IMG/VR virus record: IMGVR_UViG_2724679543_000008
DNA: 4,589 bases
Direction: 5' to 3' (one strand)
DNA from: a virus
Lineage: Duplodnaviria > Heunggongvirae > Uroviricota > Caudoviricetes
The stretch's first letter is position 1. Every line of letters starts with the position of its first letter. The translations under genes were made by a program, and so were the position numbers. The notes beneath the pieces are model-generated. The model saw only the letters and a program-made list of their open reading frames with translations, did not search any database and was not told the DNA's origin. Positions 1-4,589 of this stretch are shown here, one piece after another.

Positions 1-58
1 TGTTGTTCTGAGGTGAGCATATCACCTCTGTTCAGGTGGCCAAATTCAGTGTGCCACT

Positions 59-205
59 TCAGGACGGTAAGCCTGACAGGTAGCCCGGAATGAGGGTCTT
101 GATAGCGAGCGACAACGGATAGGACTGACCGTCCAGACTCACAGTGTTTTCATAAAGGTTGATGTCGGTGACTGACAGCTTCCAGTTGTTGTTGTTGAAC
201 ATCAT
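59..205 (-). CDS. hypothetical small protein, 48 aa (MMFNNNNWKLSVTDINLYENTVSLDGQSYPLSLAIKTLIPGYLSGLPS)
   Basis: Hand-translated minus-strand ORF, ATG at 205-203 (second in-frame ATG at 202-200), TGA stop at 61-59. Strong SD GAGGAG 8 nt upstream of the ATG (rc of ctcctc at 214-219). Same strand as the Rha operon. Absent from the ORF track, which appears to list only ORFs of about 60 aa or more. No recognisable domain. Confidence 0.35.
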   Translation of the reverse strand: MMFNNNNWKLSVTDINLYENTVSLDGQSYPLSLAIKTLIPGYLSGLPS

Positions 206-324
206 AGGTAATTCTCCTCTTGAGAGTTGAGACTATCGGTATCGCAGGCACAGTAAGGCCTACGGGTCTCCCCGCATCGGTCATCTCAAAAGGTGTTTAA
301 ATTAGGTATTGAGTAGGTGAGCTA

Positions 325-501
325 CTAACGGTTAAGCGGCAGTTTCATAGCGACCAGTTGGGCTATTAGCTCGTCTCGGGATTGGTGCTGGCGGGTCTCA
401 TCTTCCGGGTCTAGACCAAGCTCTCTGAGGAGGACTTCAGTCCGGTAGCCACGGTAACGGAGAGTCATGCGCCCCTCAGGTGTGCGCGGGTCAATCATCA
501 T
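325..501 (-). CDS. hypothetical small protein, 58 aa (MMIDPRTPEGRMTLRYRGYRTEVLLRELGLDPEDETRQHQSRDELIAQLVAMKLPLNR)
   Basis: Hand-translated minus-strand ORF, ATG at 501-499, TAG stop at 327-325. The ATG lies 1 nt after the TAA stop of the upstream Rha-like gene (503-505), with a GGAGG SD inside the Rha 3' end, suggesting translational coupling. Absent from the ORF track (below length cut-off). No recognisable domain. Confidence 0.4.
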   Translation of the reverse strand: MMIDPRTPEGRMTLRYRGYRTEVLLRELGLDPEDETRQHQSRDELIAQLVAMKLPLNR

Positions 502-502
502 C

Positions 503-1249
503 TTAGATTCCCTCCACCTTACCGGATTGTGCCAGCTTCAGGAGGTGCTCTTGCTTCTGCTGGTCGGTGCCAGTGAATGCAATAAGGATGCCTCGCATCT
601 TGTCAACCATCTCAGGCTTACCGAAGACCTCCAGCCCCTTAGCGTTGAACCGGAAGTTATACCCACCTGCTGAGAACTTCTGGTCTGACGGCTTAATGAT
701 ACGAAAGCAGTCGGAATACTTCGGATTTACAGACCACTCGTTACTGATTGGGTTCTTACGAAAGAGGCCACGATGCTGGAGAAGTGCGGTCATTAGCTTC
801 TGAGCGGGCAGACCATAGGTTTTGCAGTAGTCGCCCCAAGTCACGCCTCGGCGGTTAGCGGACTGAATGGCTGCTCGCTTCTTCTGGTCTTCCAGTTGAA
901 GGACTCGACGCTCTAACGTCTGAATATGGTCGTAACACTTGGCGCGGAGGTGAACGGAATAGCCAGCGACCAGAATGAAAGTATGCTTACGGTCGAGACG
1001 ATACATTGTTCGGCTCTCACCTTTCGCGTCCTTGTATACTTCCTCGCCAACGAGCCCAAATTTGGACCCGTTAAGCTCGCTGCTCAAAGTTGAGCAGTGC
1101 TCAGTTTTGGCCCCGTTAAGCTCTTCGACCATATTACGAATATCTCGTAAAACGTGTTTATGTTCTTTTCCTGTCAGCTCAGCAATTTCAACTGAGGTCA
1201 TGGACACAAGCTGGTCGAGGTTAATGATGCTGATTTCTTGTTGGGACAT
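503..1249 (-). CDS. Rha-family phage regulatory protein / antirepressor-like protein, 248 aa
   Basis: ORF-track ORF with ATG start. Canonical SD AAGGAG (rc of ctcctt at 1259-1264) 9 nt upstream. N-terminal segment SMTSVEIAELTGKEHKHVLRDIRNM resembles the conserved core of the Rha domain (recalled motif of the form ssrEIAELtGKrHdnVlRDI). C-terminal half is compatible with an antirepressor-type (KilAC/ANT-like) domain, but that is a weaker, memory-based call. Confidence 0.8.
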   Translation of the reverse strand: MSQQEISIINLDQLVSMTSVEIAELTGKEHKHVLRDIRNMVEELNGAKTEHCSTLSSELNGSKFGLVGEEVYKDAKGESRTMYRLDRKHTFILVAGYSVHLRAKCYDHIQTLERRVLQLEDQKKRAAIQSANRRGVTWGDYCKTYGLPAQKLMTALLQHRGLFRKNPISNEWSVNPKYSDCFRIIKPSDQKFSAGGYNFRFNAKGLEVFGKPEMVDKMRGILIAFTGTDQQKQEHLLKLAQSGKVEGI

Positions 1250-1563
1250 TTACGTGTACTCCTTTTGTTTGCACCCTGAAGTCGCACCCCACTGACCTAC
1301 TCAAGCCCCCACGTAAAGGGAGACCAGCAGGCAACAGGACGCAAACAGAATGACTTGAGGTAATTGGGGTTAGTGGTCTGCGATGACCATAGAGATGAAG
1401 GTTCGACAGCATGTCCGAGCGTGTGTGGTGATAGACTTAAGTCACGAGACCAAAGAACACACAGGCTGACCAGAGGCTGTCTTGCCTTAGGCTGGTGGCT
1501 AGCTTGCTAGCGTGGACCACGGTTTCTCGCTTGCCGTCTCTCAGGAGGTCAGAGGCGAGATAT

Positions 1564-1586
1564 GGTCCCTATAGTGATAGTTTAGT
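1564..1586 (-). promoter_or_regulatory. T7-family phage RNAP promoter-like site P1 (-17..+6), predicted +1 G at 1569, transcribing leftward
   Basis: Minus-strand sequence ACTAAACTAT CACTATA G GGACC. Positions -8..+3 (TCACTATAGGG) are identical to the T7 class III consensus TAATACGACTCACTATAGGGAGA; the -17..-9 region diverges. Lies ~320 nt upstream of the Rha-like gene on the same strand. Confidence 0.6.
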
Positions 1587-2124
1587 CAAACAGGAATGAA
1601 CTTCGGAGAACTTGACGCGAAAGTGTTCAGTACTTCCAGTAAGACCCGAAGCATGGAGACCACATCATAGCGACCATAATTTTACTTCGGGTTGGCGGGA
1701 GTGGAGGCTGGACTTAAAGTTCTTCTTATTGGAATTGTGATAACACAATCCATAACAAGATAAACTCATGGTCTCCTCCAGCCTGCTGGTCAAGACTCAA
1801 AGCTCCAACCTCAGACACCACTGATCTAACCTCTTTGAGTTTCCGCCTGTCCACAAATGGATGGCAGACCTCAGTAATGGTGTCTTGGTTCTTCAGTTAT
1901 CCGCGCAGCGATTATCACAGAGCCAACTTAAAGTCGGATGTGGTCTACTGCTCCCCGCCTGTCAAAAGGGAAGATAGCTTACGTTAAAAGGAATGGTCTC
2001 AGGCCAAGGTGATTTAACACTAGGCGTCTGCGGATGGTTTCCAATCGGTCCGCTACCGGAAGCCTGAGACTTAATGAATGTGTGTATGGGTCGTGACTGC
2101 TATTAAGGTGGGGACTTAGGGTCT

Positions 2125-2147
2125 CTCCCCTATAGTGATAGTTAAGG
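2125..2147 (-). promoter_or_regulatory. T7-family phage RNAP promoter-like site P2 (-17..+6), predicted +1 G at 2130
   Basis: Minus-strand sequence CCTTAACTAT CACTATA G GGGAG. Shares a 16-nt identical block with P1 (plus-strand ccctatagtgatagtt). Core -8..+3 identical to T7 consensus. Confidence 0.6.
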
Positions 2148-2152
2148 GTCCA

Positions 2153-2175
2153 TTCCTCTATAGTGAGGTGTATTA
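2153..2175 (-). promoter_or_regulatory. T7-family phage RNAP promoter-like site P3 (-17..+6), predicted +1 G at 2158
   Basis: Minus-strand sequence TAATACACCT CACTATA G AGGAA. Differs from the T7 consensus TAATACGACT CACTATA G GGAGA at -11 (A for G) and -10 (C for A), plus +2 (A for G) and +5/+6 in the initially transcribed region; 19/23 overall. Directly tandem with P2 (start sites 28 bp apart). Confidence 0.65.
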
Positions 2176-2367
2176 TCGCTCAAGCACTGGGCCACATTGA
2201 CACACCACTGACGCCAAAAGCTAACATCAGACTTCTGCGCTCGGCTGCTGGAAGGTAACCTTCAGAAGGCCTGTAACCATTATCAGAAATCTCATGGTCA
2301 ATATGCTTTGCCATTTCAATGTATTTTGCAAGGCGCTCAACAGTTAATCCCCGAAATTGTTCAGAGT

Positions 2368-2787
2368 TTACCGCCAGGACACTTTTGCAATATCGTCTTG
2401 GTTATCCAAATGATCCGCCGAGAAATTAAAGCTCGAAGTATACGAATCGCCGTGAGCAATAGCGTCTCTTACCTCAAGACACTCTTTGATAATTTGGTAA
2501 GGTTTTGTCCCCATATAATTGTTTATACCGCACAATTTTAACGTATTCTTGTGCATTGTCTTTCTGCACTCTTTCTGCGTCTTATCGTAGCCGGGGTCAA
2601 CCTGTTTTCTATAGAAGATGAACATTGCCTCAATAGCAAAAGCAGTAAATATTATACCTGTGCGGCAATGATGCTCACGTTGCCAATCTTCCGAAGCCAT
2701 TCCAGCCAGCCCCAAACAAGTTTCAGCAGTATTCATACATTCATATGAAGGCTTATTTTCTTTGCTAACTAAAAATTCTTTGACCAT
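2368..2787 (-). CDS. hypothetical protein, 139 aa (AT-rich accessory/cargo gene; possible HEPN-like Rx4H motif)
   Basis: ORF-track ORF with ATG start at 2787 and SD-like GAGGA 4 nt upstream. Starts 31 nt downstream of the integrase stop on the same strand. Markedly lower GC than flanking genes (hand count: 23/60 GC in 2521-2580 versus 36/60 in 3421-3480). Contains EVRDAIAHGDSY near the C-terminus, which fits the R-x4-H signature used by HEPN-type RNases, but a single motif is weak evidence. Confidence 0.6.
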   Translation of the reverse strand: MVKEFLVSKENKPSYECMNTAETCLGLAGMASEDWQREHHCRTGIIFTAFAIEAMFIFYRKQVDPGYDKTQKECRKTMHKNTLKLCGINNYMGTKPYQIIKECLEVRDAIAHGDSYTSSFNFSADHLDNQDDIAKVSWR

Positions 2788-2818
2788 TACGTCCTCACAT
2801 TCCGCTATCCCTATGCGA

Positions 2819-4429
2819 TTACTTTCCGTCTATTTTTTTTACTGACAATGACTCCGCTAATTTTTCTTTCAGCGTTTCCACCTCGACCTCTTTCGCGTAA
2901 CGGTCGTAAGTTATAGACCCTGAGCTATGACCCATAATCGCCTGAGCATACGCTAACTCGACCCCATGTTGTTTTAACTGGGTCGCAACTGTATGTCTAA
3001 ACGAGTGAAAAGCTAAGCCGCTACGGTCAGCGAGGACTTTGGGCAGCAACGTTCGGTTAAACCACTTGCTAACCTGCTCACCGTAGCCGTTCTTCATTAG
3101 CTTGAGGCCATTGAACACCATAGCATTATCACCCTCAGTCTTTCTACGGTCTTCCACGAGTGACATAAAGTCAGCCAATACAAAACCATAAGCACCATCT
3201 ACCAACGGGACACAGCGGTCACTGTGGGCGTTCTTGATACTCTTACCCGGCAGGCTGCTATCGTCTTCGTTGATATGGATAAAAACGGTCCCAGCCTCAG
3301 TGGTCCTGACATCTTTAACCTGAAGTTGGGCCACCTCGTTAAGTCTCGCACCTGTAATCGCAGCCAGAGCGGTGACGTAATAATGGTATGGCTTACCTGA
3401 GGTCTTCTGCGAGTACGCTTTAGCTGCGACCAGTAGTTGCCCTACCTGCTCAGGACTGAACGCATCACGAGCGTCGGAGGCTTTACGCTGAGGGACTTTC
3501 AGCTCAAGACCTTCGGTCAGGTTCTTAGCTATCAAGTCGTTGCGTACCGCCCACTTAAACACAGCAGCCATCTTGATAAGATATTTATTGTTAATGGTAA
3601 CGACGTCCAGACAGTCAGTCTTAGACTCCCGGTTCAGCAAGTCAGACAGCGGCATAGACTTAAAGCGTTGCTTGCGGTTCTTCGGTAGCTGCTGGAGGAC
3701 TTCACGAACTCTGAGCATATCTGCACGGGTCGCCTTGCCGACATCCTGAATATCCAGATAGTCGAATATCTCGATTAGCGTAGAGTGTGACGCTCGGTTT
3801 TCGCTTAGGGTCGCTGGCTTCCAGTTCTGGGCGTTCTCCTGCTCGTACTGCTCAATGAGAGACGCGAGGGTCAGTGCTTTAGGTTCAGGGACTTCAGGTT
3901 CCGCCAATACAGATAGGGAGACGGACGGTCTTAGACTGCCAGTCTCAGGCTCAAGGTAAGACAATAGGCCAGAGCTATCGCCATTGAGTCTATCCTGACA
4001 GGCCTTAAGCACACCGATAACGTCATTAATATAGCGATGCTGGTCTACAGTCAGACGCTCGGTCGCTACAGCTTCCCGAAGGTTGGACTTAATGTCATCG
4101 TACTGGTCAACGTAAAGCTGGTAGGACTCCGGGTCGTTCAGGTCATCACGGCTGACACTAAGTTCCCACTCGACAATGGTCTTCAGGTGCTCCCGTAGCT
4201 CCTCATAAGAGGCGTTAGGGTTGTCTGCATGGATTGCTTTAAGTGCTGACTTGATGTGCCGTGAGTGAGCCATAGCGGTACGTCTATCCTTGGTCCGTAA
4301 AGATACTGACGCTAGTTTATAACGGTTGTGAGAAGGAAGCGAAGCGGTCAGGCGACTAGTGGTCTTCATCCTAAGACGGATGTAAAAGACACCATTACGC
4401 TGATAAAGGTAGGTTCTTGACTTGAGCAT
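2819..4429 (-). CDS. int: tyrosine site-specific recombinase (phage-type integrase), 536 aa
   Basis: ORF-track ORF with ATG start and AAGG SD 9 nt upstream. C-terminal catalytic domain carries the recalled tyrosine-recombinase signatures: TGARLNE (box I Arg), HSFRHT (H-x-x-R box II), GHSSGSITYDRY (catalytic Tyr). N-terminus (YLYQRNGVFYIRLR) resembles integrase arm-binding N-termini. Sits immediately downstream of a tRNA 3' end on the same strand, the classic island/prophage arrangement. Confidence 0.9.
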   Translation of the reverse strand: MLKSRTYLYQRNGVFYIRLRMKTTSRLTASLPSHNRYKLASVSLRTKDRRTAMAHSRHIKSALKAIHADNPNASYEELREHLKTIVEWELSVSRDDLNDPESYQLYVDQYDDIKSNLREAVATERLTVDQHRYINDVIGVLKACQDRLNGDSSGLLSYLEPETGSLRPSVSLSVLAEPEVPEPKALTLASLIEQYEQENAQNWKPATLSENRASHSTLIEIFDYLDIQDVGKATRADMLRVREVLQQLPKNRKQRFKSMPLSDLLNRESKTDCLDVVTINNKYLIKMAAVFKWAVRNDLIAKNLTEGLELKVPQRKASDARDAFSPEQVGQLLVAAKAYSQKTSGKPYHYYVTALAAITGARLNEVAQLQVKDVRTTEAGTVFIHINEDDSSLPGKSIKNAHSDRCVPLVDGAYGFVLADFMSLVEDRRKTEGDNAMVFNGLKLMKNGYGEQVSKWFNRTLLPKVLADRSGLAFHSFRHTVATQLKQHGVELAYAQAIMGHSSGSITYDRYAKEVEVETLKEKLAESLSVKKIDGK

Positions 4430-4563
4430 GTACTGAGACCTTAGGTCTGCTCACTACTTCAACAAAGTTAGTCACAGTGTTGGTTACAGTGAGTAAAACT
4501 ATCGGAAGGCGTTAAGCCGTATCCCTTAGGATTCAGTAAGTTAGTAGACTTTAAGAAGTGTCA

Positions 4564-4589
4564 TGGAGCGGGCGAAGGGAATCGAACCC
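4564..4589 (-). tRNA. glyU: tRNA gene, 3' portion only (T-arm, acceptor 3' strand, discriminator, CCA); consistent with tRNA-Gly (CCC, glyU-type); 5' part lies beyond the window edge
   Basis: Minus strand reads GGGTTCGATTCCCTTCGCCCGCTCCA: T-loop TTCGATT, T-stem 3' strand CCCTT, 7-nt acceptor strand CGCCCGC, discriminator T, encoded CCA ending at 4564. This matches my recollection of the 3' end of enterobacterial tRNA-Gly(CCC). The anticodon is outside the window, so the isotype is recalled, not demonstrated. Confidence 0.65.

Follow-up and report, generated by a model that had tools for sequence, protein, structure and literature searches.

Capsid-forming phage-inducible chromosomal islands (cf-PICIs) carry a full head module, comprising portal, protease or scaffold, connectors and small terminase, together with replication genes. 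From their temperate helpers they are known to take tails alone, and their regulation is of the host type. Staphylococcus aureus pathogenicity islands (SaPIs) are induced when helper proteins derepress the island repressor, and the capsid-size redirection described for them, including that by SaPIbov5 Ccm, concerns other bacteria and other helpers. In Vibrio, the phage-inducible chromosomal minimalist islands (PICMIs), of about 6 kb, and the PICI-like elements (PLEs) are small integrative elements that exploit virulent phages. Among virulent phages, those of the T7-like group are textbook examples; phage therapy against E. coli and Klebsiella makes wide use of them, and we know of no satellite of these phages. 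The locus compared here with such systems lies in a DNA stretch of 4,589 nucleotides, hereafter the window, from the IMG/VR virus record IMGVR_UViG_2724679543_000008, assigned to the Caudoviricetes. The window holds two thirds of a small integrative island, namely the part nearest to the integrase, located in the 3' end of tRNA-Gly. This island is probably of the satellite type, its operon being expressed by the RNA polymerase (RNAP) of a T7-like helper.

The island family is smaller, with about six genes, and lacks the portal, terminase and replicase of the cf-PICIs of Enterobacterales; in the gene content of 25 loci, no complete head and replication module is present. Since the operon stands behind T7-group promoters, the island points to virulent T7-like helpers, unlike cf-PICIs. 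SaPIs depend on derepression, whereas the island carries promoters of the helper polymerase. PICMIs and PLEs share with it the small integrative format, and PICMIs also the size, but their descriptions set the island apart, as neither is known to use phage-polymerase promoters and PICMIs are not known to encode a capsid protein. Profile scans of the window and its relatives gave no matches to AlpA, Fis or a replication initiator. Temperate T7-like phages, such as Pseudomonas phages vB_PsyP_3MF5 and vB_PaeM-G11, resemble the island in their integrase (31% identity), promoter grammar and single-strand polarity. However, they measure 40-42 kb and encode their own RNAP and full virion and replication genes, whereas the island, at about 6 kb, is without these. 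In work by Chung and Hinkle in 1990, plasmids with a T7 promoter or origin and a concatemer junction were reportedly replicated and packaged by T7. Such laboratory plasmids are a precedent, in mechanism, for an element that depends on its helper by cis signals only. They are artificial, whereas the island is natural, and they carry end or junction sequences, none of which has been identified in the island. Full-text literature searches returned no description of such an element, and the island family appears to be a previously undescribed phage satellite with an unusual induction logic.

The promoters provide the most direct link to T7-like phages. The motif CACTATAGNGR occurs three times in the window, always on the gene strand, against 0.01 expected, and none of 200 shuffled sequences reached three. 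The three sites, named P1, P2 and P3 (Table 1), fit the T7-group form, a 23-bp sequence from -17 to +6 with CACTATAG at -7 to +1 and a G-rich start, P3 having an A at +2. P1 shares 22 identical nucleotides with the K1F promoters at 17177 and 20996, and its position is kept among the relatives; P2 shares 20 with the K1F promoter at 25321. Nine sites with the specificity region of P1 and P2 are present in the K1F genome. The 17-nt core of these two promoters is found four to six times per genome, on a single strand, in T7-like viral contigs of 39-40 kb, and the contigs bearing it belong to the K1F-like genus Kayfunavirus, with PE3-1, vB_EcoP_F, ST31 and Citrobacter phage CR44b. For P1 and P2, the specificity region (-8 to -12) recurs many times along a single strand in the genome of a cognate phage. 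This does not hold for P3, whose core showed no repeated use within any IMG/VR viral contig. A previous interpretation made from the DNA letters alone (the sequence-only reading) had regarded phage-RNAP promoters as the only strong signals ahead of the Rha operon. This is borne out by the three promoters and by the minus strand between them and the Rha gene, where no sigma-70-like site was found. The whole element of the intact E. coli relative L001 contains one such site, against 5.8 +/- 2.1 expected.

The P3 slot differs in its specificity region between otherwise near-identical elements, e.g., AATAACCCCTCACTATAGGGGAA in L084 and GAAACCCACACTATAGGGGAA in L001. From these sequences, the slot appears to turn over quickly.

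Relatives were gathered by genome search with an integrase alignment. One to four co-oriented T7-group promoters lie directly after the integrase or the cargo gene in 22 of 23 loci. In E. coli relatives, the T7 consensus TAATACGACTCACTATAGGGAGA occurs once or twice without a mismatch (23/23 positions), and their promoters, flanks included, are identical over 26-28 nt to T7 phi13, phi10 and phiOR. Klebsiella relatives have three or four promoters belonging to three classes (KP32-type, Pharr-type and T7 consensus). The class ATTAGGGCACACTATAGGGAGA is used by KP32 and is presumably also that of K11, and the class ATTAGGTAGCACTATAGGGAGA is used by phage Pharr; each phage genome using these classes contains a single one. 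The Proteus and Kluyvera relatives carry TTAACCCACACTATAGGGAGA, which is used six to eight times per genome in phages such as SRT7. The promoter position is kept across genera while the specificity region shifts to match different T7-like phages. The presence of several specificities in one element argues against a prophage remnant and for an element listening to several polymerases.

Intact relatives were found in E. coli, Klebsiella, Enterobacter, Citrobacter, Proteus and Pectobacterium. In these elements, the last 17-27 bp of tRNA-Gly recur as a direct repeat at the far end, and such att repeats were located in the E. coli, Enterobacter, Citrobacter, Klebsiella and Proteus relatives, where the second copy stands 4.35-6.65 kb downstream of the tRNA. 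The relatives are discrete small elements with their own integrase and att sites. The sequence-only reading had made its proposal depend on whether the complete element also lacks an RNAP. The boundaries and gene content of the relatives now support the proposal on this point: the elements are att-bounded, measure 4.3-6.65 kb and hold neither an RNAP nor a full T7 gene set. Searches with T7 RNAP by tblastn gave no match in 25 loci, reaching up to 9 kb past the integrase, and with no RNAP in any locus and a size of at most 6.65 kb the family does not have the makeup of a temperate T7-like prophage. Portal, terminase, tail, polymerase and primase genes were likewise without matches in the profile scans and loci, the capsid and scaffold-like genes being the sole virion-type genes. 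The other anatomical observations of that reading were also confirmed. The integrase and the Rha-like gene have Pfam matches (Table 1), the attachment site proved to be the 3' end of tRNA-Gly that is repeated at the far end of intact relatives, no RNAP gene was found in the window, and the polarity is uniform, every gene, promoter and tRNA end lying on the minus strand.

The usual gene order starts with the integrase, followed by an optional cargo gene, one to four promoters, about 0.9 kb of non-coding DNA and a DNA-binding protein, which is Rha, KilA-N or a 163-aa protein depending on the relative. The element ends with a small protein bearing the IDPRTPEGR motif, a scaffold-like protein of 136-163 aa, a capsid protein of 328-384 aa and attR. 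In the window, the far att end was lost to IS911, and the match to E. coli relatives begins at base 63. Because the IS911 insertion truncates the element, the scaffold-like gene beyond codon 48, the capsid gene and attR are missing, and this copy is probably no longer complete. The IS911 end also makes a Shigella or an E. coli rich in IS elements the probable source.

Table 1. Features of the 4,589-nt window, with the evidence for each
Feature	Position	Strand	Evidence or remark
IS911 terminus	1..61		61 nt, 100% identical to the IS911 annotation of Shigella phage Sf6
Scaffold-like gene, first 48 codons	62..205	-	94% identical (tblastn) to the L001 163-aa protein, residues 1-48
Conserved 58-aa protein, IDPRTPEGR motif	325..501	-	Same-position homologues in 14/15 capsid-bearing loci
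Rha-family DNA-binding protein, first operon gene	503..1249	-	Pfam Phage_pRha E 1.5e-18; PHROG 10324 E 2.6e-62
Conserved structured 5' leader, ending in the Shine-Dalgarno sequence of the first operon gene	1250..1356	-	Alignment, RNAalifold
P1, K1F-type (Kayfunavirus) phage RNAP promoter, CTAAACTATCACTATAGGGACCA	1564..1586	-	Positions -17 to +6; start site 1569
Conserved non-coding segment between promoter clusters, about 540 nt	1592..2130	-	Downstream of P2/P3
P2, K1F-type phage RNAP promoter, CTTAACTATCACTATAGGGGAGA	2125..2147	-	Start site 2130
P3, T7-like promoter variant, TAATACACCTCACTATAGAGGAA	2153..2175	-	18/23 positions as in the T7 consensus; start site 2158
Cargo slot, frameshifted copy of a 202-aa gene	2180..2787	-	tblastn, two pieces in different frames
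Tyrosine integrase, 536 aa	2819..4429	-	Pfam Phage_integrase E 1.6e-18; PHROG 1 E 4e-45
tRNA-Gly (glyU locus) 3' end, attL side	4564..4589	-	tRNA-Gly annotated there in 95%-identical E. coli loci

The capsid gene, lost from the window, is the last gene of the promoter-driven operon in the relatives. Its product has no match in Pfam, PHROG or NCBIfam. An AlphaFold model built from 31 family members (pLDDT 63, pTM 0.63) retrieved capsid proteins as its sole matches in Foldseek, with 130 viral ones at E <= 0.001, and corresponds to the HK97 fold, which is defined by a spine helix, an E-loop and P and A domains. According to this predicted structure, the last gene of the relatives is an HK97-fold capsid protein. 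It is preceded by the scaffold-like protein, whose family includes a 163-aa member homologous to DUF6971 proteins (Pfam DUF6971 E 3e-36) and has a charged, coiled-coil C-terminus; position and composition suggest a scaffold role for this DUF6971-type protein. The dN/dS values are 0.06-0.14 for the capsid, 0.11-0.37 for the scaffold-like protein and 0.05-0.20 for the integrase. This purifying selection indicates that the genes are maintained and are not debris.

The cargo slot relates the family to a known anti-T7 gene. In many relatives, the cargo gene overlapping the integrase stop codon is RAZR/PD-T7-4 (DUF4145), recognized by PADLOC at E 2.4e-101. The L016 protein matches the PD-T7-4 model over residues 1-209 of 211, and the genes are located at 11628-12266 in L016, 22095-22754 in L001 and 11628-12269 in L010. 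RAZR/PD-T7-4, consisting of a zinc ribbon and a DUF4145 HEPN domain, is absent from the window, where a different gene occupies the slot. Vassallo et al. isolated PD-T7-4 by T7 selection and stated that such systems "often overlap" an integrase gene (PMC9519451). A 2026 paper renamed it RAZR and showed that it is an abortive-infection RNase activated by the T3/T7 portal (PMC13017515). The promoters, the capsid gene and a satellite are not mentioned in the available parts of these two papers, and the words integrase, satellite and mobile do not occur in that of PMC13017515. RAZR/PD-T7-4 is one cargo gene inside the islands of the relatives and not the island itself.

These features can be combined in a scheme in which the island parasitizes a T7-like helper. 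In the uninfected cell the main operon would be silent, because no host-type promoter precedes it. Upon infection by a virulent T7-like phage, the single-subunit RNAP of the phage would recognize the island promoters, in this copy two of the K1F type and one T7-like variant, and would transcribe the leader, Rha, the small protein and the scaffold-like protein, as well as the HK97-fold capsid protein in intact copies. As replication, portal, terminase and tail genes are absent, the island would borrow the replisome, packaging motor, portal and tail of the helper. Its own capsid and scaffold proteins might build or remodel shells. The T7 genome starts its replication at phage promoters, and therefore the island promoters could double as origins. 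The slot between the integrase and the promoters would be expressed independently and would carry exchangeable defense genes, and the stacked promoter specificities would widen the range of usable helpers. The expected outcome is that the island spreads and the phage yield is lowered. A more ambitious proposition is that undescribed satellites of about 6 kb, distributed throughout the Enterobacterales, exploit virulent T7-like phages with multi-polymerase promoter arrays, their own small HK97 shells and RAZR cargo, the helper polymerase serving as induction signal, transcription engine and probably replication primer. For this complete picture, the chances are about evenly divided.

The sequence-only reading had allowed for either parasitism or abortive-infection defense. 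The parasitic branch is now favored, with the addition of the predicted HK97-fold capsid and the scaffold-like gene, and the defensive branch is partly upheld by RAZR in many relatives. A phage-sensing defense island that is not mobilized is the main rival to the satellite. In such an island, the phage polymerase would switch on the operon and the products would abort or cripple the infection, the integrase having served for horizontal acquisition only. The products would be the DNA-binding protein, capsid-like and scaffold-like proteins that poison assembly or serve as decoys, and toxins in other variants. This explanation deserves serious consideration but is less probable than a satellite. 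It gains from the anti-T7 gene beside the promoters in many relatives (PMC9519451, PMC13017515), from the capsid-less variants, in which the promoter is followed by KilA-N with a 157-aa protein or by a Phd/Doc-like pair, from viral and Logan contigs that yielded no packaging evidence, and from the window's subfamily, in which no pac-like or end-like similarity was found. It accounts poorly for an HK97-fold capsid and a scaffold-like partner kept under strong purifying selection in many genera, a content typical of satellites. We know of no defense system built with a complete capsid protein and a scaffold-like partner. The T7-end-like motifs and the AT-rich array following tandem T7 promoters have no obvious role in pure defense, and the compact, att-bounded size in more than ten genera fits a self-transmitting element. 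The satellite and defense readings overlap, because satellites normally interfere with their helpers.

Several results weigh against a satellite. The confidence of the capsid model is moderate (pLDDT 63), and the capsid and scaffold-like proteins have no sequence similarity to gp8, gp9 and gp10 of T7 and K1F, which makes compatibility with a T7-type portal conjectural. Short-word BLAST against the T7 and K1F genomes and concatemer junctions returned the promoters as sole matches. End sequences were also compared with an unbiased test, in which the top left-end 6-mers of a phage were counted with promoters masked. For K1F, this test was negative in the window's subfamily. In the non-coding region of the T7-promoter relatives, the T7 left-end 6-mers are enriched (10-18 observed versus 1.5-2.9 expected), which speaks for a satellite, and therefore end mimicry is a lead for the T7-type relatives only. 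No excised circles were found, and the capsid gene occurs among viral contigs only in prophage calls of 18-73 kb from isolate genomes, not in viromes. Some relatives have no capsid module, and their promoter precedes either KilA-N with an uncharacterized protein or a Phd/Doc-like pair, an arrangement that looks more like triggered defense. Finally, RAZR, present in many copies, aborts T7 upon sensing the portal (PMC13017515) and is therefore an awkward cargo for an element that needs a productive helper. Logan contigs of 6.4-6.6 kb had been considered as excised circles and were rejected as chromosomal fragments.

A decayed integrase end of a temperate T7-like prophage, with promoters left over for its own polymerase, would explain why the nearest phage integrases lie at the genome end of temperate T7-like Pseudomonas phages, and would fit the uniform polarity, the real T7-group promoters and the window taken alone, which is an end fragment. 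Nevertheless, this origin is unlikely. Independent decay would not yield att-closed elements of 4.3-6.65 kb whose gene order agrees among many genera, and purifying selection acts on the genes. T7 genes are otherwise absent, the capsid protein has a sequence unrelated to that of gp10, and single elements have two or three polymerase specificities, which one phage never does. The integrase lineage shared with temperate T7-like phages also belongs to the evidence for a satellite. It is very improbable that the promoter-like sequences are fortuitous or non-functional and that an ordinary cryptic integrase island is run by the host polymerase. P3 is without a cognate phage in IMG/VR, which would be compatible with chance resemblance, but three matches were obtained against 0.01 expected, the relatives reach 23/23 positions of the T7 consensus and 26-28 nt of T7 identity with flanks, position and orientation are kept across the family, and no host-type promoter lies ahead of the operon.

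If the satellite reading is true, the island would sense infection through the polymerase of the invader and would need no dedicated sensor protein, and the stacked promoter specificities would show how an element widens its helper range. The family would be among the smallest capsid-encoding satellites, with about six genes and no replicase. RAZR/PD-T7-4 would be an island cargo, which changes the reading of its evolution and of its conflict with T7. Strains carrying the island may alter the yields of T7-like phages in therapy, and natural isolates with exact chromosomal T7 promoters would respond to T7 RNAP expression systems.

The non-coding DNA ahead of the operon contains two conserved parts, and its conservation and structure count among the evidence for a satellite. 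Of all non-coding blocks in the family, the leader, of about 110 nt, is conserved best. The window and Klebsiella share 90% identity in it, against only 30-50% in the proteins, and in the RNAalifold prediction 8 of 23 pairs show compensatory changes. The leader has no match in Rfam and may act as an RNase III site, in translational control or as a DNA site. The second part, at 1592-2130, is 88-96% identical to the Citrobacter, Buttiauxella and Enterobacter relatives, and its divergence of 0.04-0.13 is below the integrase dS of 0.16-0.32. Its RNA folding has a z of -3.55, better than all of 100 shuffles, and it contains no conserved open reading frame and no Rfam family. This segment may have a part in replication or packaging, or may be a structured RNA. 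Within it, the palindrome ATTGTGATAACACAAT at 1734-1749 is invariant in the K1F-promoter subfamily, apart from one variant each in L009 and L084, and is absent from the other subfamilies; it may serve to bind a protein. The non-coding region of the window, 0.95 kb in total, showed no DNA similarity to 50,697 phage records. It has no AT-rich, origin-like stretch, the minimum being 42% G+C, and the T7 concatemer-junction pause signal ATCTGT and the left-end sequence TCTCACAG do not occur consistently. A TAAGTC motif common with the K1F left end (4 versus 0.24 expected) was picked post hoc and discarded, the unbiased test being negative.

Tandem repeats are not present in the window. In T7-promoter relatives (L015 11637-12704, also L013 and L014), the non-coding region is packed with tandem arrays: 13-bp GATGACCATAGGC in 4.5 copies, 10-bp CCTGTGTGGT in 4.8 copies, AT-rich 12-bp TTAAATTAAAGA in 15 copies, 13-bp CTATAGGGTCTCT in 16 copies and 9-bp CACCACTAG in 5.6 copies. 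The AT-rich TTAAAG array sits after the two T7 promoters in these T7-type relatives.

The window integrase has more than 600 homologues in Enterobacterales, and its nearest phage relatives, the integrases of temperate T7-like Pseudomonas phages, align over 94% of its length. The attachment core TCCCTTCGCCCGCTCCA is located at 4564-4580 inside the tRNA-Gly end. ARAGORN reports no tRNA, since the window stops within the gene, and the tRNA end was the sole match in an Rfam scan of the window. The two pieces of the window cargo gene are 98.5% identical to the intact L005 protein, with a frameshift near 2383-2386. Intact copies of this 202-aa gene exist in Enterobacter (L005 11666-12274) and Kluyvera (L094 8036-8644). 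The gene has a G+C content of 37-41% in the window and a weak HEPN likeness (Pfam RiboL-PSP-HEPN E 0.04). For the 58-aa protein, Pectobacterium L097 is the sole capsid-bearing locus of 15 with no match. AlphaFold2 predicts four helices with a pLDDT of 77, and neither a significant fold match nor a family match in the profile scans was obtained.

Among 5,426 complete E. coli genomes, 28 contain an element of the window type that covers 80% or more of the query. In the same set, the capsid-less T7-promoter type is present in 44 genomes and the capsid-bearing T7-promoter type in two. The family extends to Klebsiella, Enterobacter, Citrobacter, Buttiauxella, Shimwellia, Proteus, Pectobacterium, Serratia, Yersinia, Erwinia and Lonsdalea. 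In E. coli (L001 16000-24600; L002; L010-L015), the element has tRNA-Gly (glyU) on one side and the ETT2 type III secretion island on the other and was therefore probably inserted after ETT2.

Capsid-less variants differ among hosts. A Phd/Doc-like pair lies downstream of the promoter in Edaphovirga, a serine recombinase is present in Citrobacter braakii, and the L010 type of E. coli has KilA-N and an unknown 157-aa protein behind the promoter (coordinates for these variants: L098 12041-12645; L095 13596-14183; L010 12770-13924). Some relatives contain a predicted membrane protein of 96-102 aa between the small and scaffold-like genes, in either orientation (L005 13769-14077, on the opposite strand; L096 12629-12919; L097 12437-12727). 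The gene is not in the window, and its position looks like a second variable slot. In L105 (1-6432), the capsid gene is followed by genes of the ynf region (molybdopterin oxidoreductase, DUF1161 and a speG-like gene) in place of the usual flank, which suggests a rearrangement or a second location.

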